Shown here: piece after piece, positions 141 through 61,797 of the stretch
Position numbering within the stretch: position 1 is the stretch's first letter
Layout: every line of letters begins with the position of its first letter
Source of the DNA: Christensenella sp. UBA1750
Lineage (GTDB): Bacteria; Bacillota; Clostridia; Christensenellales; UBA1750
Length of the DNA stretch: 61,797 nt
NCBI GenBank assembly: GCA_002315655.1
Contig: DCHO01000049.1
Location: 1-61,797 of the forward strand
Direction: 5' to 3'
Translations under genes and position numbers: made by a program
The notes under the pieces: model-generated
What the model saw: only the letters and a program-made list of their open reading frames with translations
Database searches by the model: none
Told to the model about the DNA's origin: nothing

Positions 141-159
141 TTTGTGTATGGAGGGTGGT

Positions 160-366
160 TTAGGAGGGGAGGCCGGAGACGGAGCAGCAGCGGCAGGAAG
201 AACAGCCGCCCGAGCAGGAGGAACATCCGCCGGAGGCGCCGCAGGAGCAGCTGCCCTGGCAGCGGACGCCGGTGGAGGTTACGGTGATGCAGCTGCCGGG
301 GCAGGTGGAGGTGTAGCGGATCTGCCGGATGCCGGATTGGTGGTGCGAGCAGGAGGAACAGGCCAT
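160..366 (-). CDS. Small Cys/Ser/Gly-rich protein (68 aa, 13 Cys), metallothionein-like or spore-coat-like
   Basis: ATG at 366 preceded by AGAAAGGTGG (RBS), TAA at 160-162, own terminator; MACSSCSHH...CSSCSGGCSSCRCC. Confidence 0.65.
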   Translation of the reverse strand: MACSSCSHHQSGIRQIRYTSTCPGSCITVTSTGVRCQGSCSCGASGGCSSCSGGCSSCRCCSVSGLPS

Positions 367-477
367 GAAGATGCCACCTTTCTGTGTGCGGTGTGCAGAA
401 AGATTTCTGCCGCTATATCCTATGCAAGAGCGGGACAATTTGCTATAATGAGCGTAAAAGCAAAAGGAGGACAGCGT

Positions 478-1086
478 ATGGAGAAACTGATGAAGCTGGC
501 GGAGCAGCTCTCAAAAAGGGATTACAGTGCCGTGTGTTTTGCAACCGCAGAGGAAGCGAAGGCACACATTCTTTCCGAAATCAAGGAAGGAGAGAGCGTC
601 GGCATCGGCGGCAGCATGACGGTGAAGAGCTTGGGATTGGACGCGGCGCTGTCGGAGCGCGGAAACAGTGTTTTCTGGCACTGGAACGCGAAACCGGGTG
701 AAGGCTTTGCCATGCAGAAGCAGGCGGCCTTTGCTGACGTGTACCTGTGCTCCGCCAATGCCGTGACGAAGGACGGCATCCTTGTTAACATCGACCAGTT
801 CGGCAACCGCTTGGCGGGGCTGATGTTCGGCACCGGGCGGGTATATGTGATCGCTGGGAAAAACAAACTGGTGGGGAACATCGAGGAAGCGCTGGATCGC
901 ATCAAGAATGTGGTCGCGCCGCAGAATGCCCGGCGGCTGAACCTGAACACCCCTTGTGCCAAACTGGGACAATGCACCGACTGCAACAGCCCCCAGCGGA
1001 TGTGCCACGCCACCTTACTGTTGGAACGAAAGCCCGGTACGCACCCCATCGAAGTGGTGCTGGTGAACGAGGACTTGGGCTATTGA
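478..1086 (+). CDS. LUD-domain (lactate utilization LutC/YkgG-like) protein
   Basis: AAAGGAGG RBS then ATG at 478; GIGGSMT, YLCSANA, NIDxxGNR, GKNK, C-terminal PCxxxGxCxDCxSPxRMC cluster. Confidence 0.8.
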   Translation: MEKLMKLAEQLSKRDYSAVCFATAEEAKAHILSEIKEGESVGIGGSMTVKSLGLDAALSERGNSVFWHWNAKPGEGFAMQKQAAFADVYLCSANAVTKDGILVNIDQFGNRLAGLMFGTGRVYVIAGKNKLVGNIEEALDRIKNVVAPQNARRLNLNTPCAKLGQCTDCNSPQRMCHATLLLERKPGTHPIEVVLVNEDLGY

Positions 1087-1087
1087 C

Positions 1088-1576
1088 ATGAACATGGATG
1101 CAATCGAGTGTTTGGGCATCAAGCGGGTGCTGGACAGAGGCACGGCAGAGGTGCTGTTCCGGGACGAGGGAACAATCCTTGTGAAGGACACGGTTTCCGG
1201 CGCGGTGATGCTGGCTTCCGATGATGCGGAGGCGGGCAAAAAGGCTTTGACCGAAAATTACGATCTCATTTCCCCCGAGGAGCTGCGGGAAGTGATTGAA
1301 AGAGAAGCTTTGCTCATCGGGGAAAAGGACGGGGATAAAGTGGGCTTTATCGGGGAGCACCTGGAGGGCAGTATGGGACTGCTCTATGTGATCCCGGAGC
1401 ACAGAAGGAACCATTACGCGCAGGAGCTGGAAAGCATCTATGTTTCAAAAACGCTGGACAAAGGGTTTATCCCCTTCGGACAGGTGAAGGCGGGCAACGA
1501 GCCTTCCCTGCGTTTACAGGAGAAATTGGGGTTCACCAGATCGGAAACGTTGATCTATTGGATGTGGAAAGAATAA
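1088..1576 (+). CDS. GNAT family N-acetyltransferase
   Basis: GSMGLLYVIPEHRRNHYA and NEPSLRLQEKLGF acetyl-CoA-binding motifs. Confidence 0.8.
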   Translation: MNMDAIECLGIKRVLDRGTAEVLFRDEGTILVKDTVSGAVMLASDDAEAGKKALTENYDLISPEELREVIEREALLIGEKDGDKVGFIGEHLEGSMGLLYVIPEHRRNHYAQELESIYVSKTLDKGFIPFGQVKAGNEPSLRLQEKLGFTRSETLIYWMWKE

Positions 1577-1593
1577 AAAGGGAGGCAGATAAG

Positions 1594-2457
1594 ATGAACA
1601 GACGTTCCTTTTCGGAAAGGGATTATGATGCGGTTTATGCTTTTCTTCTCAAGATGAACCGTGAGAACAAGACCTACATCAACTGGAATTGGGCGCGGTT
1701 TGAATGGATGTACTGGCATCGTGACTTTGAAAAGAGCCTGGAAAACAGCATTGGCCTGTGGATGGAAAATGACGAGGTTGCAGGTGTCGCCATCTATGAC
1801 CAGTACTTTGGTGAAGGCTATGTTGGGGCATTACCTGCCTATCGTTCTTTAATTCCCGAAATTCTGCAATACGCTTATGAACAACTCAAAGATGACAACG
1901 GTTTGGGAATCGCAATCAACGATGCGGACGAAGGGATGCAGTCTGCCGCGAAAGAGCAGGGCTTTACGCTTTCGGAGCAGACGGAGAACATTATGCGCAT
2001 ACCGATTGATCATCAATTCTGCGTTCATTTGCCAAAAGGGTTATCCATACGGGAGATTGACCGGGAGAAGGACGGAGAAAAGTATGACGAGGTGCTGTGG
2101 AAGGGCTTTGACCACGGGAATGACAGAGAGGAATTCCTGCGCGAGAACACGCTGAAAATCCCTGAACGCAAGCATTACAGACAGGAATTGTGTCTGGCTG
2201 TTGCGGATGCGCAGGACAATTTCATTGCACACGCGCAAGGGTGGCTTGCAGATAACACCGACTATCTGTATGTTGAGCCGGTTTGTGTGATTCCGCAGGC
2301 ACGCGGAAGCGGCATCGGCAACTGTGTGGTGAAGGAACTGTTGAACCGCGCTGCACAACTTGGGGCAAAGCAGGCTTATGTGATCTCCGATAATCCGTTC
2401 TATGAAAAAATAGGGTTTGTAAACGATCAGCATTACACCTTCTGGTGGAAAGAATAG
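1594..2457 (+). CDS. GNAT family N-acetyltransferase (two-domain)
   Basis: GGGAGG RBS then ATG 1594; VEPVCVIPQARGSGIG and FYEKIGF motifs. Confidence 0.8.
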   Translation: MNRRSFSERDYDAVYAFLLKMNRENKTYINWNWARFEWMYWHRDFEKSLENSIGLWMENDEVAGVAIYDQYFGEGYVGALPAYRSLIPEILQYAYEQLKDDNGLGIAINDADEGMQSAAKEQGFTLSEQTENIMRIPIDHQFCVHLPKGLSIREIDREKDGEKYDEVLWKGFDHGNDREEFLRENTLKIPERKHYRQELCLAVADAQDNFIAHAQGWLADNTDYLYVEPVCVIPQARGSGIGNCVVKELLNRAAQLGAKQAYVISDNPFYEKIGFVNDQHYTFWWKE

Positions 2458-2466
2458 GAGTAAAGT

Positions 2467-4437
2467 ATGGCAGTTTGGATCTGGTACCCGCAGGATTTTG
2501 AGATTGACCTGTGCGGCAAGGTGGAGTTTCGCCGCCGCGACCACGGCATGACCTATCCGACCGTTTGGCGGTTGGACGCCCCCTCGCGCTCGGTGCATTT
2601 TGTGAAGAAATATACGCTGGATGCGCCCGGCACCATCCGCATTTTTGCGCAGGGCGAGCCGTATTGCTGCATTGACAATCTGGTTGTGCCCGACAGATGC
2701 GAAACCGTGGAGCTGCCTAAGGGAACCCACGAATTGCGGGTCGGCGTGATGAGCCTTCATTCCCTTCCTGCGCTCTACATTGACGGCGCACTGGAAACCG
2801 ATGAGAGCTTTGTCACCTCCGATGATTTTGTGCATTTCGTTCCCTGCGGCTACTCGAAGCTGTTCGACGCGCCGGAGAAACGCCCGGAGGACTATCGGCT
2901 GCCCACCAGACACCTTGACCCGGTGGGGAAGACCAAGGAAGGCTACTGGGATTTCGGTAAGGAGAGCTTCGGCTTTATTCACTTTGACGCGGCGAAGGAC
3001 GGCGAGTGCATCGTCTTTTGCGGTGAATCCGTCCCGGAATGTGACGCGGGCATGGGCGCGGAGCTGTGGGACAGGGTGCAGGTGAAAAAGGGACAGCACG
3101 TCCGCATCGACACCCGCGCTCTGCGTTACCTGCGCATTGACGGAGATGTGGAGGACGGCAGCGTCTATGTGGAGGAGGAGTACAACGGGCTTCCCTTCCG
3201 CGCTTCTTTTAAGAGCAACGATGCGCGGCTGAACAAAATTTATGATGTTTCGGCCTATACGATGGAAATGTGTACCCGCGAGTTTTTCCTGGACGGCTTG
3301 AAGCGCGACCGCTGGCTGTGGGCGGGGGATGCGCTGGAATCGGTGATGATGAACCCCTATTCCTATTTTGATTCCGAAACCACAAGAAGAACGCTGGCCG
3401 CCCTGCGCGGACGCGAGCCCTTCACCCAGCACATCAACCGCATTCTGGATTATTCCTTCTATTGGGTCATTTCCGTGTGGGAGGACTTCTTTGCCACGGG
3501 CGATGCCTCCTTCATCCGCTCCATCTATTCCAAGATGGTCTCCATGATGGAATACACGCTTTCCTGTTGCAACGAGGACGGCTTCATCGTGGGCAGAAAG
3601 CAGGACTGGGTGTTTGTGGACTGGGCGGACATGAGCAAGGAAGGCGAGCTGTGCATCGAACAGGTGCTGCTGTGGAAGGCCATGGACATTCTGCACAGGA
3701 GCGCGGAATTGCTGGACAAGGAGGAAGATGCGGCACGCTTCGGCGGCATTGCGGACAAGCTGAAAGATAAGATCATGGAGGTCTTCTGGTCGGAGGAAAA
3801 GGGTACGTTGCTGCACCAGCGACTGAACGGAAAGGTACAAGGGCACACCCGCTACGCGCCCATGTTTGCGCTGATGTACGGGATGTTGACTCCCGAACAG
3901 GAACAGTTGGTGATTGCAAACTCCTTACTGGGCGGCGATGCGCCGAAGATCACCACGCCCTATATGCGCTTTTACGAGATGGACGCCCTCATGCGTTGCG
4001 GAAAAGCGGAAGAAGTGCTTTCCGATGTGAAGGCCTACTGGGGCGGGATGCTGGACTTGGGCGCAACGACCATCTGGGAGCAGTTTGACCCGGAGGAAAA
4101 GGGCTTGGAGCATTATGCCATGTACGGCAGACCCTTCGGGCGCTCCCTGTGCCACTGCTGGGGCGCGGGCCCGATTTATCTCTGCGGGCGGTATGTGCTG
4201 GGCGTAAAGCCCTTAGAGCCGGGGTATGCAAAATACGAAGTCGCACCGCAAACAGGCGGGCTTCATCAGGCTTCTGGCTCCGTGCCGACAACGGACGGTG
4301 ATATTTCGGTGGAGATTGACGGCGAGCACGTCACGGTGAGCAGCACCTGCGGCGGGGAAGGAACCCTCATCTGGAACGGAGAAACCGTGCAGATTCCTGC
4401 CGGAACCAAAGAGAAACCGGCTGTTGTGAAATTATAA
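2467..4437 (+). CDS. Alpha-L-rhamnosidase (GH78-like)
   Basis: DGLKRDRWLWAGD, FVDWA, GATTIWE, RSLCHCWGAGP motifs. Confidence 0.85.
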   Translation: MAVWIWYPQDFEIDLCGKVEFRRRDHGMTYPTVWRLDAPSRSVHFVKKYTLDAPGTIRIFAQGEPYCCIDNLVVPDRCETVELPKGTHELRVGVMSLHSLPALYIDGALETDESFVTSDDFVHFVPCGYSKLFDAPEKRPEDYRLPTRHLDPVGKTKEGYWDFGKESFGFIHFDAAKDGECIVFCGESVPECDAGMGAELWDRVQVKKGQHVRIDTRALRYLRIDGDVEDGSVYVEEEYNGLPFRASFKSNDARLNKIYDVSAYTMEMCTREFFLDGLKRDRWLWAGDALESVMMNPYSYFDSETTRRTLAALRGREPFTQHINRILDYSFYWVISVWEDFFATGDASFIRSIYSKMVSMMEYTLSCCNEDGFIVGRKQDWVFVDWADMSKEGELCIEQVLLWKAMDILHRSAELLDKEEDAARFGGIADKLKDKIMEVFWSEEKGTLLHQRLNGKVQGHTRYAPMFALMYGMLTPEQEQLVIANSLLGGDAPKITTPYMRFYEMDALMRCGKAEEVLSDVKAYWGGMLDLGATTIWEQFDPEEKGLEHYAMYGRPFGRSLCHCWGAGPIYLCGRYVLGVKPLEPGYAKYEVAPQTGGLHQASGSVPTTDGDISVEIDGEHVTVSSTCGGEGTLIWNGETVQIPAGTKEKPAVVKL

Positions 4438-4443
4438 ACAGTA

Positions 4444-4483
4444 CACCAAAAGAGGCGGAAAACCGCTTCTTTTGGTGCTTTTT
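4444..4483 (+). terminator. Rho-independent terminator
   Basis: CACCAAAAGAGGCGG-AAAA-CCGCTTCTTTTGGTG followed by CTTTTT. Confidence 0.8.
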
Positions 4484-4566
4484 GGCGGCTTCTCTTTTGC
4501 ATCCTTCCGATTCCTGCTAATGTAATTTCAGGGAATTTTCCGGGAAATGAAAGGCAGGAGAGGAAC

Positions 4567-5358
4567 ATGGGAGAGGCAATCGTGATCACTTCGGGAAAGG
4601 GCGGCGTGGGGAAGACCACGGCAACGCTGAACATCGGCGCGGCGCTGGCACTGAAAGGCGCGCACGTTGTTCTTGTGGACACGGACATCGGACTTAGGAA
4701 TCTGGATGTGGTCATGGGGCTGGAGGAGAAGGTGACGTATGACTTGATCGACGTGCTGGAGGGCAAGTGCCGCATTCGGCAGGCGCTTGTGGACGATCCG
4801 CGCTTTTTCGGCAGGCTGCATCTTCTCCCGGCGGCGCAGACGCGGGACAAGCGGGAGATCGAGGCGGAACAGATGCGGTCTCTGGCCAAGGAACTGAAAG
4901 GAATGTTCGATTTTGTGCTCATTGACTGCCCGGCGGGCATCGAAACGGGCTTCGTGAATGCCGTGGCGGGGGCGGATTCCGCCGTGGTCGTGACCATGCC
5001 GGAGGTGTCCTCCGTGCGGGACGCGGATAAAGTCATCAGCATTCTGAAAGCTCTATCCATGCCAAAGCCGAAGATCATCGTCAACCGTCTGCGGACGAAG
5101 ATGGTGCGCCGGGGCGACATGATGGACGAAAACGACATGGCGGAAATGCTTGCCTGTGAATTGCTCGGCATCATCCCGGACGATGAGACGGTGATCCGCG
5201 CCGGGAACTTAGGGGAGCCTGTGGTGCGCGGGACAAGCCCGGTGTCGCTGGCTTACCGCAATATTGCGGAGCGTTTGCAGGGGGAAAACGTGCCTTTGCA
5301 GGTTCTCCACCGGGAAAAATTCAGCATTTTCCGCAAACTCAAACGGAAACTGGGATGA
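4567..5358 (+). CDS. minD: Septum site-determining ATPase MinD
   Basis: ITSGKGGVGKTT deviant Walker A, DTDIGLRNLD, LIDCPAGIE, amphipathic C-terminus FSIFRKLKRKLG. Confidence 0.92.
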   Translation: MGEAIVITSGKGGVGKTTATLNIGAALALKGAHVVLVDTDIGLRNLDVVMGLEEKVTYDLIDVLEGKCRIRQALVDDPRFFGRLHLLPAAQTRDKREIEAEQMRSLAKELKGMFDFVLIDCPAGIETGFVNAVAGADSAVVVTMPEVSSVRDADKVISILKALSMPKPKIIVNRLRTKMVRRGDMMDENDMAEMLACELLGIIPDDETVIRAGNLGEPVVRGTSPVSLAYRNIAERLQGENVPLQVLHREKFSIFRKLKRKLG

Positions 5359-5369
5359 AGGAGGGGCAC

Positions 5370-5618
5370 ATGAGCATTTTTCAGAGCAACAAAACGGGCG
5401 CGGCGGCAAAGGCGCGGCTCAATACCTGTCTTCGGGAAGACAGAACGCACCTGACCAACCGGGAGCTGATGCTGATTCGGCTTGATGTGCTCGCCGCGCT
5501 TTCCGAATATGTGGAAATGGAGCGGGAGAGCATGAAGGTTTCTCTGGTTCATGGAGGACAAAATGAGCCAAACTCCCTTCTGATCTCGGTTCCGATCTTA
5601 GTCCGGAAGGCAAAATGA
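5370..5618 (+). CDS. minE: Cell division topological specificity factor MinE
   Basis: AAKARL...DR motif, directly after minD; AAGGAGGGG RBS. Confidence 0.8.
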   Translation: MSIFQSNKTGAAAKARLNTCLREDRTHLTNRELMLIRLDVLAALSEYVEMERESMKVSLVHGGQNEPNSLLISVPILVRKAK

Positions 5619-56044: not shown

Positions 56045-56077
56045 AAAGCATATCGCAATTTCGCGGTATGCTTTTTT
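56045..56077 (+). terminator. Rho-independent terminator
   Basis: AAAGCATATCGC...GCGGTATGCTTTTTT. Confidence 0.65.
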
Positions 56078-56115
56078 GTGTGCCTTCATATCCTGTACGG
56101 AAAGGAGGGGGACAG

Positions 56116-56979
56116 ATGGATGTGACCGACCTTCTGCCGGGGCAGTACAGGAATTTGATTGCCTCGTACATGACCGATTCCGTCCGGGAGATTCGCTTTC
56201 GCATCGGGCGGGAATGTGTGCTGTGCGGGCAAAACAATGTATTCGTGAAGGATTTCAAGCCTTCTGCAGAGGATGTGCGGAAGCTTCTTCTGCATCTGTG
56301 CGATTACGCGCTCTACGCTCACGAAGAACAGCTCAAAAGCGGTTATATGACCCTGTCCGGCGGGCATCGCGTGGGCATCGCAGGGAGCTTCGTCACGGAA
56401 AACGGAAAGCCTGTGCGCCTATCGGACGTGCAGAGCCTTTGCATCCGCGTAGCGCGTCAGATTCCCGTGCGCAAAGAGGTGAGCGATCTGTTCTTTGCGG
56501 GAAAAGAGCCGCTGTCTTCGCTGATTCTGTCCCCTCCGGGCATGGGGAAAACCACCCTTTTGCGGGAAATTGCCAAAATCGCGGGGGACAATGGGATTCA
56601 GACCGCCATTGCGGACGAGCGTGGGGAGCTGGCGGCGTGCTTTCGGGGTGAACCGCAGTTGGATGTGGGCAAATGCACCGATGTGATGGAGAATCTGCCT
56701 AAAAGCGCGGCGATTCCGATGCTGGTTCGTGCCATGTCACCGAGGCTCATTGTATGCGATGAGATCGGGTCGATGGAGGACAAAACCGCCATTGAGGAGG
56801 CGGTGCGCTGCGGATGCAAGGTGCTGTGCAGCGCCCACGGAAACGGGATTCCCGACGCGAAGAAGCGGCACAATCTGTCCGGGCTTTTGCAGGAGCGCGT
56901 TTTTGACCGCATTGTGGTGCTGGGCGTGGAGGTAGGGCGGGTGTGCGGGGTCTACGACGGGGAGGGAAAGCCGTGCTGA
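56116..56979 (+). CDS. spoIIIAA: Stage III sporulation protein AA (ATPase)
   Basis: EIRFR, GYMTLSGGHRVGIAG, SPPGMGKTTLLR, ADERGE, MSPRLIVCDEIG. Confidence 0.92.
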   Translation: MDVTDLLPGQYRNLIASYMTDSVREIRFRIGRECVLCGQNNVFVKDFKPSAEDVRKLLLHLCDYALYAHEEQLKSGYMTLSGGHRVGIAGSFVTENGKPVRLSDVQSLCIRVARQIPVRKEVSDLFFAGKEPLSSLILSPPGMGKTTLLREIAKIAGDNGIQTAIADERGELAACFRGEPQLDVGKCTDVMENLPKSAAIPMLVRAMSPRLIVCDEIGSMEDKTAIEEAVRCGCKVLCSAHGNGIPDAKKRHNLSGLLQERVFDRIVVLGVEVGRVCGVYDGEGKPC

Positions 56980-57449
56980 AGGTGCTGGGAATGATTCTGT
57001 GCAGTCTGTCGCTGTGTGTTTTAGGTTTCCTGTCGGTGTGGCTCTCGAAGAAGCGATTGGACGCGGGAAAGGATGCCGTCCACTGCCTGAACCTGCTTGC
57101 CACGGAGATCTGCGACCTCAAAAAGCCGATAAGCCGCGCTCTTGCCGACCTGTCTTTTGCGGGAAATCTGATTAAAATCATCAGTCTTGTGCCCCAGCCC
57201 TGGACGGAAGAAACACTGAAAGGAAAGCTCAAAGAAACAGGCTTGGGCGGGGAGGAAACTTCCGTTGTGGCAAAGCTGCTTATGGAGATTCCCGCCATGC
57301 CGACGGGGCGCAGGGAGGCCTTTTTGACGGCAATACAGGAACTCAACGCTATTGTGACCATGCGGCAAGAAGCGCTGAAAAACACGGGGAGCTTATATCC
57401 GAAGTTAGGGCTGCTCTCGGGGGCACTGTTGCTTTTGCTGTTTCTGTGA
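56973..57449 (+). CDS. spoIIIAB: Stage III sporulation protein AB
   Basis: Position and size; C-terminal LYPKLGLLSGALLLLLF. Confidence 0.75.
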   Translation: MLKVLGMILCSLSLCVLGFLSVWLSKKRLDAGKDAVHCLNLLATEICDLKKPISRALADLSFAGNLIKIISLVPQPWTEETLKGKLKETGLGGEETSVVAKLLMEIPAMPTGRREAFLTAIQELNAIVTMRQEALKNTGSLYPKLGLLSGALLLLLFL

Positions 57450-57464
57450 CATAGGAGGACGAAA

Positions 57465-57671
57465 ATGAAGCTTTCGGTTGAACTGCTTTTCCGGGTGGCG
57501 GCCATCGGGCTTGTGATGGCGCTGGCTTCCACCATATTAAAAAGTGCCGGGCGGGACGATATGGCCATGCTCTGCTCCATCGGCGGGCTGATACTGGCCA
57601 TGCTGCTGGTAGCGCAGGGAATATCCTCCCTGTTTTCCCAGGTGCAGGAGCTGTTCCCGCTGTATGGATAA
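57465..57671 (+). CDS. spoIIIAC: Stage III sporulation protein AC
   Basis: LLFRVAAIGL...ILKSAGRDD.A; 68 aa with two TMs. Confidence 0.85.
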   Translation: MKLSVELLFRVAAIGLVMALASTILKSAGRDDMAMLCSIGGLILAMLLVAQGISSLFSQVQELFPLYG

Positions 57672-58048
57672 TGAACCTGCTGAAAATTGCCGGAATCACT
57701 CTATGCGGTGCGGCGGCTTGCCTGTTTTTGCAGGCCACGGGGAAAAAGGAGCTGGCGATTCTTGCCGAGCTGACCGCCGGAATCGTGCTGTTTGCCTACG
57801 GGCTGTGCGCCGCAAAAGCGCAGCTCGGAGACATGAATCTGCTGTTTTCCGAGGACGAAACGGTTGTGCTCGCGTTCAGAATGACGGGCATTGCGCTGTG
57901 CATGGAACTGATGGTGCAGCTTTGCCGCGATGCGGGGCTGAACACGTTGGCGCAAAAGGCCGAATTGTGCGGGAAAATTCTGCTGCTGTGCCTGTGCGTT
58001 TCCGCGCTAAAGGAGGTGCTGTCCTCTGCGCTGTCCTTGCTCTCCTGA
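57671..58048 (+). CDS. spoIIIAD: Stage III sporulation protein AD
   Basis: LCRDAG...LAQKAELCGKILLL. Confidence 0.88.
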   Translation: MNLLKIAGITLCGAAACLFLQATGKKELAILAELTAGIVLFAYGLCAAKAQLGDMNLLFSEDETVVLAFRMTGIALCMELMVQLCRDAGLNTLAQKAELCGKILLLCLCVSALKEVLSSALSLLS

Positions 58049-58944
58049 TGGTGTTTTTCCCGAAACCCGTTTTTGCCGTTTCCATCGAGGAAGAAACCCG
58101 GCATTTGCTGAAAGAGACCGATTTGACGGCTGTGGAGGAAGCCCTGCCGAATCTGAACGTAAAAGAGCTGCTGGAAAACGCCCTGCGCGGGGAAGGGCTG
58201 GCGGATGCGGAAACATGGAAACAGGCTTTCCGCAAGGCACTCACGGGGAGCGCGGAGGAACTGCTGCCGTCCCTTCTGCGCCTGTGCGGGTATGCGATCC
58301 TGTGCATCACGTTGTCTTTGCTCACGAAGGAGGAAGGTGTCGGCACACTGGCGCAAAGTCTTTTGCACATTTCCGCCCTGCTGCTGCCCGCAAGACAGGC
58401 TGTTGCGCTGATTGTGCGGGTAGGGAACACATTGGACGGCATCGGGAAGCTGTGCGGCGCTGTCACACCGACGGTCTCCGCGCTGCTGCTGGCGGAGGGG
58501 AGCGTGAAGCTCTCGGCGGGCGGACAGGCGGTGGCTTTGTTCGTGATGGACACACTGCTTTCCTTCGCCCAAAGGGTGCTGCTACCTCTATTGAAGGGCA
58601 CGGCGGTGCTGGTGTTGTTTTCTGCTGCCGCTCGGAATCTGCCGCTGAACAAGCTGTGCAAGCTGCCGCTGTCCTTTGCCAAATGGAGCTGCGGCATCGG
58701 CTTTGCGGCGTTTTTAGGGCTGCTGACGGTCAAGGGCATCCCTGCTGTGCGCTATGACGGCGTGACGGTGCGGGCGGCGAAATACGCGGTGGAAAAGCTG
58801 GTGCCGGTGGTCGGGGGCATTTTCAAGGACACCACCGACACCCTGATTGGCTGCGTGCTGCTGCTGCGCGGAGCTTTCGGGATAATAGTTATAATAGGAG
58901 CAAACCGAGAAAAGTGGCTATTTTCAAGGGTTTGCGGCTACTAA
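57994..58944 (+). pseudogene. spoIIIAE: Stage III sporulation protein AE, 3'-truncated at about 58,885 (start uncertain; ATG 58048 is an alternative)
   Basis: DGVTVRAAKYAV...VPVVGG...DT..TLIGC..LLRGAFG, then runs into AT-richer foreign sequence; spoIIIAF-AH absent downstream. Confidence 0.8.
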
Positions 58945-59067
58945 GTCAAATATCGTTATTTGTTTTTACTTAACGGGAAAGACGGCGACAATCCTTGAAA
59001 CAGCTAATAGTTTCTTGATTGCTCTCTGTTTAGCCCAACAACGGAGTGAAAGTGAATAAAGGTATTT

Positions 59068-59110
59068 GACAAAGTAGCCGGAGGCGTAAATGCACCTCTG
59101 GCTACTTGTC
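59068..59110. repeat. Imperfect inverted repeat
   Basis: GACAAAGTAGCCGGAGG...CCTCTGGCTACTTGTC. Confidence 0.6.
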
Positions 59111-59160
59111 GTGCAAAAATACATTTGGCGAAATAAGAAAAATTAAACGGAGAAATGCGT

Positions 59161-59694
59161 ATGAAGACAATAAAACCATTTGAGAAAAAGATTTGGTTAT
59201 CTTCTCCGACAATGCACGGAAAGGAAATTGAATTCGTTACCGATGCCATTGATAAGAATTGGGTGACGACAGCCGGCGAAAACATCAATGATGTCGAGGA
59301 CACTATTACAAAAATTGTCGGTTGCAAATACGCAGTTGGACTTTCCTGCGGCACATCTGCACTTCATCTTTGCATGAAGCTTGCCGGAGTTAAGCCGGAA
59401 GATCTGGTCTTTACCTCCGACACCACTTTCGATGCAACTGTCAACCCCATCACGTATGAAGGCGGTGTCCCTGTTTTCATCGACACCGAATACGATACAT
59501 GGAATATGGACCCGGTGGCGTTAGAAAAGGCGTTTGAAATATATCCACAGGTTAAAGTCGTTGTTGTTGCCAATCTGTATGGCACTCCTGCAAAGCTGGA
59601 TGAAATTGTTGCCATCTGTAAAAAGCATGGAGCAATTTTGATCGAAGATGCCGCTGAATCACTCGGTGCTACATACAAATGCTTGCAGAGCTGA
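59161..59694 (+). pseudogene. 5' fragment of DegT/DnrJ/EryC1/StrS PLP aminotransferase
   Basis: LSSPTMHG, CGTSALHL, LYGTPA, IEDAAESLGATYK, then sequence switches; the PLP-lysine region is missing. Confidence 0.82.
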
Positions 59695-60194
59695 GAACAC
59701 CGGACAAGCAAAAGCTATGGAGTCAGGTGCTATACGGCTACAACGCAGGAAATGAAGATATTGTGGTAATCGCTTTGTCACAGATCGGCAATGTGGGCGG
59801 TGGACCGTACTGGAGTTGGTACGGCTTTAACTCCCGTGTGGAGTGGTGTGCCTGCTTTGTTTCTTGGTGTGCAAATGAAGCCGGATATATTGAGATCGGT
59901 GTGATTCCGAAATTTGCCGGATGCTGCAACGGCGTTGATTGGTTCAAAGATCGTGGTCAGTTCCAGGATAACTCCTATACGCCGAATCCCGGAGATATAA
60001 TCTTTTTCGATTGGGACAGCCCGAATGGTTCATCCGGTCCGCAAGACGGACTGGCAGATCATGTCGGTATTGTCGAAAAGGTTGAGAACGGTATCGTTTA
60101 CACAGTCGAAGGAAACACAAGCGACAGTTGCAGAGAACGGCAATATTCTGTTGGGTATTATGAGATACTTGGCTATGGATTGCCGAGCTATTGA
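59679..60194 (+). pseudogene. 3' fragment of conjugative-element CHAP-domain peptidoglycan hydrolase
   Basis: ALSQIGNVGG.PYWSWYGF..RVEWCACFVSWCA, PGDIIFFDW, DHVGIVE, TVEGNT; no N-terminal part and no clear RBS. Confidence 0.75.
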
Positions 60195-60372: not shown

Positions 60373-61797
60373 ATGACATCACTAAAAAAACTTCCGGTAG
60401 GGATTGAGGACTTTTCGGAAATCACGAACGGACGCTATTATTATGTGGATAAGACTGCGTTCATTCGGGATTTGGCGTTAAATCACGACAAGGTCAACCT
60501 GATTACCCGTCCGAGAAGATTCGGCAAAACCCTCAATATGAATATGCTCGAAACCTTCTTTGCCATTGGTGGCGACAAGACGGCTTTTGACGGTCTTGAA
60601 ATCTCAAAGGATAAGGATTTCTGCAATACCTACATGGGAAAATATCCGGTTATCTCTATCAGCTTAAAAGAACTCGACGGTCTTTCTTTTGAGAGCGCTT
60701 TCAAATTGGTAAAAAACTATATTGCTGATGAAGCAGGAAAATTTCTTTTCCTTGCTGATAGTGATAAACTTGATGCAAAAGATAAAGCAGATTTTCAGGC
60801 GTTGTTGCTCAAAGATGAATTCGGAGTGTCCATGATGGACGATGCAGCATTAAAAACAAGCTTGAAATTTCTGTGCGGTCTGCTTTATAAGCATTATGGT
60901 GTCAAACCGATTTTGCTGATAGATGAATACGATGTTCCTTTGGATAAGGCAAATCAGCATGGCTATTATGACGAAATGGTGGATTTGATCCGCAAGCTGT
61001 TCGGAAACGCTCTGAAGACGAATATAGATCTTGAATTTGCGGTTTTGACCGGATGCCTTAGAATTTCCAAAGAGAGTATTTTCACCGGACTTAATAACTT
61101 CTCTGTTTTTCCTGTCAATGAGCCAACATTTTCTGATTATTTCGGCTTTACTGACAAGGAAGTTCGGGATATGCTTGAATATTTCAATTTCACAGACTTG
61201 TATCCCATGTTAAAGGAGTGGTATGACGGTTATCATTTCGGAGATACCGAAATCTATTGCCCGTGGGACATTATCAAATATTGTTCTGATTTGCTGAGAT
61301 TACAGCAGAGAAAAGCGGATGCTACTCTTGAACCCAAAAACTATTGGATCAATACCAGCGAGAATACCGTTATCAGACAGTTGATCGTTCAATCTGATGA
61401 ACAGACAAAAGAAGATATAGAGAAGCTGATTGCGGGCGAATCCTTGCAGAAGGAAATCAATGAATCTCTCACTTACAGCGACATCAATAAGGACGAAACA
61501 AGCATTTGGAGTTTGATGCTTGCAACCGGGTATTTGACCTTTGATTCTTATTCTGGACATACTTATTCCATAAGAATCCCGAATACTGAAATCCGCAGTA
61601 TCTTTGCCGAACAGGTCATGAAATGGTTTAATGACGAAACCGGGAAAGAGCCGGAACGAATTGAGGTACTATGTTCCGCTGTTGAAAATGGAGATGCACA
61701 GGGCTTTGAAAAAAGCTTTTCGGATTATCTTCTTGACACTATCAGCATCCGTGACACGAGTGTACGCAAGTTGAGAAAAGAAAACTTCTATCATGGA
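60373..61797 (+). CDS. AAA-ATPase-like protein (family usually carrying a C-terminal PD-(D/E)XK nuclease), runs off the window end
   Basis: LPVGIEDF, YYVDKT, TRPRRFGKTL, LIDEYDVP, LTGCLRISKESIFTGLNN, WYDGY, NYWINTS; open frame to 61797. Confidence 0.88.
   Translation, partial: MTSLKKLPVGIEDFSEITNGRYYYVDKTAFIRDLALNHDKVNLITRPRRFGKTLNMNMLETFFAIGGDKTAFDGLEISKDKDFCNTYMGKYPVISISLKELDGLSFESAFKLVKNYIADEAGKFLFLADSDKLDAKDKADFQALLLKDEFGVSMMDDAALKTSLKFLCGLLYKHYGVKPILLIDEYDVPLDKANQHGYYDEMVDLIRKLFGNALKTNIDLEFAVLTGCLRISKESIFTGLNNFSVFPVNEPTFSDYFGFTDKEVRDMLEYFNFTDLYPMLKEWYDGYHFGDTEIYCPWDIIKYCSDLLRLQQRKADATLEPKNYWINTSENTVIRQLIVQSDEQTKEDIEKLIAGESLQKEINESLTYSDINKDETSIWSLMLATGYLTFDSYSGHTYSIRIPNTEIRSIFAEQVMKWFNDETGKEPERIEVLCSAVENGDAQGFEKSFSDYLLDTISIRDTSVRKLRKENFYHG

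Follow-up and report, generated by a model that had tools for sequence, protein, structure and literature searches.

Several elements that interrupt sporulation-related genes have been described. In sigK, the skin element of B. subtilis is served by SpoIVCA and skinCd of C. difficile by CD1231 together with a directionality factor (PMC5025042). SPbeta lies in spsM (SprA/SprB; PMC4191935, PMC5499854), gin in gerE (GirC/GirX; PMC5595907) and yin in yabG of C. botulinum (PMC10747680). Our literature search on sporulation gene-intervening elements did not find spoIIIAE named as a target, and the case described here thus adds, from a single observation, a new target gene to a known class of events. 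Recombination by large serine recombinases (LSRs) leaves a 2-bp core that is not palindromic and does not duplicate the target. Where their cognate site is missing, LSRs, for example phiC31 and the multi-targeting LSRs, integrate at pseudo-att sites that partly resemble attB.

The window, 61,797 nt, is the entire contig C54 of a scaffolded, 93% complete MAG (assembly G000; 83 contigs, 2.65 Mb). A mobile element is inserted in its spoIIIAE gene. Taken as a whole, our explanation, which we consider probable, is that an LSR element entered spoIIIAE at a GG dinucleotide, most likely as a secondary site, with the consequences for sporulation considered below.

A precise split of spoIIIAE

The window contains the following features:

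56068-58048, + strand: spoIIIAA, spoIIIAB, spoIIIAC and spoIIIAD, intact (Pfam Spore_III_AA, Spore_III_AB and SpoIIIAC, the last in two ORFs)
58021-58880, + strand: 5' part of spoIIIAE, ~287 codons (Pfam Spore_III_AE, profile 2-250 of 321)
58879-58880, + strand: GG crossover core of attL, common to the host empty site and the element
58881-59679, + strand: 799-nt left arm of the LSR element; contigs from unrelated metagenomes match it at 92-99% identity
58901-58935, no strand: imperfect inverted repeat GCAAACC...GGTTTGC, just inside the left junction
58945-59160, + strand: conserved, strongly structured non-coding leader, 216 nt, upstream of DegT (-74.9 kcal/mol, z = -7.9)
59161-59679, + strand: 5' half of the element's DegT/PglE-like aminotransferase gene (Pfam DegT, profile 3-155 of 360)
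59680-60194, + strand: 3' part of a CHAP-domain gene of conjugative-element type (Pfam CHAP), probably misjoined to DegT
60373-61797, + strand: AAA-ATPase_like gene (PF09820), running off the contig end and contiguous with the CHAP piece in other metagenomes

A whole-genome profile search placed the two parts of spoIIIAE on different contigs, with Pfam PF09546 (Spore_III_AE) matching C54:58156-58896 (profile 2-250) and C80:2277-2504 (profile 245-320). An earlier note on this DNA had remarked that SpoIIIAE homology ends at a drop in composition, and this is the case: GC content falls from ~0.60 to ~0.40 at 58880. The split that the note put at ~58,882 is genuine and its position needs a small correction, as the last host bases are the GG at 58879-58880 and foreign DNA begins at 58881. 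Past the break the frame runs through 21 foreign codons (IIVIIGANREKWLFSRVCGY) to a stop at 58942-58944 and the C-terminal part is lost, in agreement with the first reading of a stop at 58944. The start codon of spoIIIAE is uncertain, the reading frame being open from 57664.

As had also been noticed, spoIIIAF-AH do not follow in the window, where the break is succeeded by the 5' half of a DegT aminotransferase gene, a CHAP-domain fragment and the AAA-ATPase_like gene (Pfam). The earlier note advised a search for the 3' half of spoIIIAE with spoIIIAF-AH, and both are present on contig C80. The missing 3' quarter of spoIIIAE begins at C80:2279. After it come, in order, two ORFs that occupy the places of spoIIIAF (a short one) and spoIIIAG, and then SpoIIIAH (Pfam match). 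Both spoIIIAE halves are undamaged. Joined at the common GG they give an in-frame ORF of 1101 nt and 366 aa, to which C80 contributes positions 2279-2519, and the joined SpoIIIAE matches the profile from 2 to 320 in one stretch with 171 bits versus 128 bits for the truncated form. On paper, precise excision thereby restores the SpoIIIAE ORF with a full-length PF09546 match and a spoIIIAA-AH operon. The register was taken from intact SpoIIIAE proteins of same-genus genomes, ~40% identical to this one, and reads ...RGAFG/TVAVIGLL..., where the slash marks the break.

Both attachment sites, whose definition the note had called for, could be written out around the GG core. The attL site is GCTTTC-GG-GATAATAG with its core at window 58879-58880 and attR is CATCAGGA-GG-TACGGTGG with its core at C80:2277-2278. 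The empty site is present in a relative ('organism B', from public runs of one 2024 study) that is ~92% identical over the spoIIIA operon and has an uninterrupted junction in contigs from two runs of that study. The X20 contig (3615 nt) tracks window positions 56909-58880 and then reads TACGGTGGCG..., with TACGGTGGCGGTGATCGGGCTTCTGTGGGT corresponding to C80:2279-2308. The X22 contig gives the reciprocal view, matching C80 from 2277 and preceded there by GGCTGTGTGCTTCTGCTTCGCGGGGCTTTC. The attB in relatives is GCTTTC-GG-TACGGTGG (GCTTTC-GG-TACGG), from which it follows that the insertion added no duplication and removed nothing. GG is thus the 2-bp core common to attL, attR and attB, and there is no target-site duplication. 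Because a 92%-identical relative lacks the insertion, the event is recent.

Across 401 genomes of the same order, spoIIIAE is present in 337 and is split by foreign DNA in G000 only. In the same genus it is uninterrupted in all six genomes with a match, the seventh giving no match of any kind. Apparent splits in G135, G166 and G323 were rejected as contig-end truncations, and a partial match in G366 was rejected as a split as this genome carries two full copies, the second a paralogue. The insertion is documented as one instance in one 93%-complete scaffolded MAG.

Element ends, usual target and cargo

The foreign sequence is found in metagenomes from horse gut, wastewater, sludge, bioreactor and gut, and none of the other metagenomes that hold it has the host part beside it. 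X2, X19, X28 and the ENA contig L014 match the window from exactly 58879, with 96-99% identity around the left end. Their left flanks are four mutually diverged sequences, ...PQLVINILLK, ...ELPQIFNILK, ...ELPQILNIIK and ...SLDELPEAFNILK, each a version of the LPQLFNVLKG motif that is conserved in bacterial sugar transferases (Bac_transf, PF02397). At the other end, X2, X24, X25 and X27 match C80:1485-2278 at ~99%, and the sequence after C80:2278, recorded in X2, X24 and X27, differs from C80 in each. The right flank in X2 (ACAGATGAGTTTTATCGGGCCGAGACCGCT) reads G-QMSFIGPRP and that in X24 reads G-DMS. In X27 the right end is followed by GATGTGATATGTCATTTACTATTGATGGGA, unlike the usual G-DMS-x-VGPRP, and the site may be decayed or belong to a third class of target. 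X2 shows both junctions, with a sugar-transferase gene split between LKG and (D/Q)MS, again at GG.

Identical element termini therefore occur in independent insertion contexts whose flanks differ, the two ends matching at 98-99% in unrelated metagenomes. As the same ends flank the sugar-transferase motif elsewhere, the left end in the window and the right end on C80 are the termini of one element family. The usual target of this family is the LKG/DMS motif codons of PF02397 genes. Exact-pattern scans of genome, viral and metagenome contig collections with both element ends returned nothing, and the foreign tail had no match to phages and plasmids by megablast.

The imperfect inverted repeat that had been seen just inside the junction is indeed there, and its inner segment, AGTGGCTATTTTCA (58912-58925), has an inverted partner, TGAAAATAGCACT, close to the right end (C80:2220-2232). 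The two ends also share an exact 15-nt direct repeat, ATAATAGGAGCAAAC, at window 58891-58905 and C80:2123-2137, 11 nt in from the left end and ~140 nt in from the right end. This 15-mer could be a binding site for an accessory protein.

The cargo is best seen in L014, a 5335-nt MEGAHIT contig that starts with 95 nt of the 5' part of a sugar-transferase gene, followed by the element end and leader. Next come genes for a 411-aa DegT aminotransferase, 95% identical to the window fragment, for a protein of the APH family and for an NAD-dependent epimerase/dehydratase. They are succeeded by a complete PF02397 transferase of 241 aa, whose motif sequence is a different one (DELPELVNIMVGDLSICGPRP), and by a PglD-like acetyltransferase. 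Exact look-ups of these cargo proteins returned L014 only. By its domain content, the cassette looks like a diacetamido-sugar (bacillosamine-type) module, and the same content suggests that its transferase replaces the resident transferase that the element disrupts. The leader ahead of DegT is 98-99% conserved across unrelated metagenomes, versus 92-96% for the adjoining coding sequence, and a search of Rfam with positions 58945-59160 gave no match. The leader may act as a regulatory RNA with a defined structure, or its DNA may be required for recombination.

The element family looks like a plug-in surface-glycan switch, or replacement module, for gut and digester Clostridia. We judge this LSR-borne aminosugar cassette, which carries its own initiating transferase, to be the more useful by-product of the analysis.

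The recombinase fragment and the blunt joints

The earlier note had anticipated a neighboring large serine recombinase, and a probable fragment of one does adjoin the attR junction. This ORF, at C80:1485-2006, is read towards attR and stops 270 nt short of the core. It has no direct Pfam match of its own. In an exhaustive phmmer search, C80:1485-2003 aligned to residues ~369-524 of 536-aa proteins (E 1e-14 to 1e-18, ~35% identity) that carry Resolvase, Recombinase and Zn_ribbon_recom domains, the aligned part being their post-zinc-ribbon C-termini. Three LSR genes on contig C55 have similar C-termini. Given its alignment to LSR C-termini, we assign this ORF as the probable last third of an LSR. 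Only this third of the expected gene is there: C80 holds the C-terminal 173 codons, and the N-terminal two thirds are absent from the whole assembly. The ORF runs on upstream in X24 and X25 (...AGKHSNCSSA/HIPLSF). A length-padded word search did not find the full-length recombinase, and a related-locus search found no relatives of the fragment in genome or metagenome contig collections.

G000 has further LSR genes, namely three in tandem at C55:~150-5500, one cut by the start of C60 (C60:1-963) and another at C79:1828-2115, as well as a DUF4368 remnant that contains an in-gene TAG (C25:49736-49888, close to the contig end). Given these extra genes, there may be further gene splits by LSR elements in this genome.

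On each contig the element arm ends in a blunt joint. At 59679/59680 of C54, DegT stops and is fused, with no shared bases, to the middle of the CHAP-domain gene. In X2, X3, X28 and L014, DegT continues beyond 59679 as GGTCGTCAGACGGG..., and in X1, X2 and X28 the CHAP piece is preceded by AATATCATTTTACAGACGAGCAGAAAGAAC. By tblastn the CHAP piece matches CHAP and lysozyme-family genes of Oscillospirales and Enterococcus plasmids. At 1484/1485 of C80, the recombinase fragment is fused to a truncated phage tape-measure gene (C80:1-1484). That the tape-measure piece and the CHAP piece (59680-60194) are parts of one gene was considered and rejected, the former matching phage tape-measure genes and the latter CHAP/lysozyme-family genes of conjugative plasmids. 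The natural continuations of the DegT, LSR and CHAP genes are absent elsewhere in the MAG.

The joints lie at similar distances from the core, 799 nt on C54 and 792 nt on C80. G000 contains 118 N-gaps, 2-215 nt in length and in many cases less than 1 kb from a scaffold end, C80:954-971 being among the sites. Joint spacing and N-gaps together point to paired-end scaffolding into a repeat common to other community members. The joints have no shared k-mer and in this respect differ from a simple de Bruijn chimera. Words spanning 59679/59680 were in no public run, weak evidence given that two words were sampled. On balance we lean towards a technical origin of the joints. The terminal 2-3 kb of such MAG scaffolds can be patchworks of small contigs, a warning for their interpretation.

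Readings of the spoIIIAE insertion and known systems

In the reading that we favor, an LSR-moved integrative element would have entered spoIIIAE by conservative recombination at the GG dinucleotide and, without its cognate PF02397 gene, would most likely have taken spoIIIAE as a pseudo-attB. PF02397 is present in 9 of 14 control genomes and was not found in G000, a 93% complete genome whose unassembled 7% could hold the gene. A secondary site is the simplest reading because G000 has no PF02397 gene. The right half-sites of spoIIIAE and of the X2 sugar transferase are identical at 11 of 20 bases, including ATCGGGC at +14 to +20 from the core, and the left half-sites show no resemblance. The insertion removes the last ~80 residues of SpoIIIAE and parts the operon promoter from spoIIIAF-AH and the 3' end of spoIIIAE, with read-through into them possible from the co-oriented recombinase gene. 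With the element in place, sporulation would be blocked at stage III, if B. subtilis spoIIIA genetics are a guide. The insertion thus reads as an off-target landing, probably disabling sporulation in one strain.

The earlier note proposed a different role, with spoIIIAE as another programmed, skin-like target. Here the LSR and a directionality factor would excise the element in the mother cell, rebuild spoIIIAE and gate the SpoIIIA-SpoIIQ channel. The spoIIIA operon is a mother-cell operon in B. subtilis, the LSR gene adjoins attR and reads towards it, and the two undamaged halves of spoIIIAE are restored exactly by excision on paper, all of which fit such a developmental element. However, the same element resides in non-sporulation sugar-transferase genes in at least four other contexts, and the insertion is unique among the ~400 genomes of the order, same-genus relatives being intact. 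The empty site in the 92%-identical relative makes the insertion recent, and spoIIIAE acts early, at the sigma-E stage, which leaves little time for an excision step. Moreover, neither a directionality factor nor a sporulation promoter nor a complete recombinase was found in the assembled parts of the element. Developmental excision is accordingly unlikely, and a programmed rearrangement is not supported, with no positive support and several points against it. We regard as distinctly improbable the version in which the element is complete in the real genome, mother-cell excision gates the SpoIIIA-SpoIIQ channel and the forespore keeps the element with its glycan cassette. If true, it would amount to sigma-E-stage gating by DNA excision, earlier than any known rearrangement target.

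The remaining readings turn on the joints. If these are real, the recombinase is dead and spoIIIAE permanently broken, and the element would be a decayed, immobile remnant with ~800 nt left per end and a truncated LSR, in a lineage that is losing sporulation. Sporulation loss is common in gut Firmicutes, in the assembly as given DegT breaks off at codon ~175 and the LSR retains its final 173 codons, and joints that have no k-mer overlap are unusual for graph chimeras. Yet the near-equal distances from the core of two independent breakpoints (799 and 792 nt) suggest a length scale of technical origin, their partners are unrelated fragments (phage tape-measure and conjugative CHAP), each truncated mid-gene, and the genome is a paired-end scaffold with its 118 N-gaps often close to scaffold ends. 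The failure of the two sampled 59679/59680 words to occur in any public run weighs weakly in the same direction, and we consider a remnant rather unlikely. The opposite view, for which the earlier note had raised a chimeric contig, is that spoIIIAE is intact in the real genome and that the assembler attached foreign tails at 58880. Although the contig ends are demonstrably patchworks and mixed communities commonly contain the element, the same GG is the breakpoint in two separate contigs, each break is an exact element terminus in independent metagenomes, and a mistake by the assembler would not recreate the two LSR att junctions with base precision. Because the far half, the LSR fragment, the att sites and the empty site were all found, a plain chimera at this position is very unlikely.

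An off-target LSR insertion would share with skin the precise splitting of a mother-cell sporulation gene by an LSR-bearing element, and clean excision would restore the ORF. Skin, however, has become fixed in its lineage and is excised in connection with sporulation, whereas the spoIIIAE insertion is a single recent occurrence of an element that normally resides in a non-sporulation gene, and the assembled parts show no sign of regulation. SPbeta, gin and yin are likewise gene-intervening elements in sporulation-related genes, SPbeta and gin being moved by serine recombinases, and gin demonstrates that non-phage elements also qualify as intervening elements. For SPbeta and gin, excision during sporulation has been shown experimentally, while that of the spoIIIAE element is hypothetical.

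Partial site resemblance, a 2-bp core and the lack of target duplication are features in common with LSR integration at pseudo-att sites, although the spoIIIAE case would be one natural event, read from sequence. Set beside the sugar-transferase insertions, it would give a natural pseudo-site versus cognate-site pair for one recombinase. Among clostridial elements, Tn4451/Tn4453 (TnpX) and Tn5397 (TndX) are similar to the spoIIIAE element: they carry cargo, are not phages, have their LSR at one end and cross over at a 2-bp site. These transposons differ in having a GA core and resistance or conjugation genes, in contrast to the GG core, sugar-transferase motif target and glycan cassette of the family described here.
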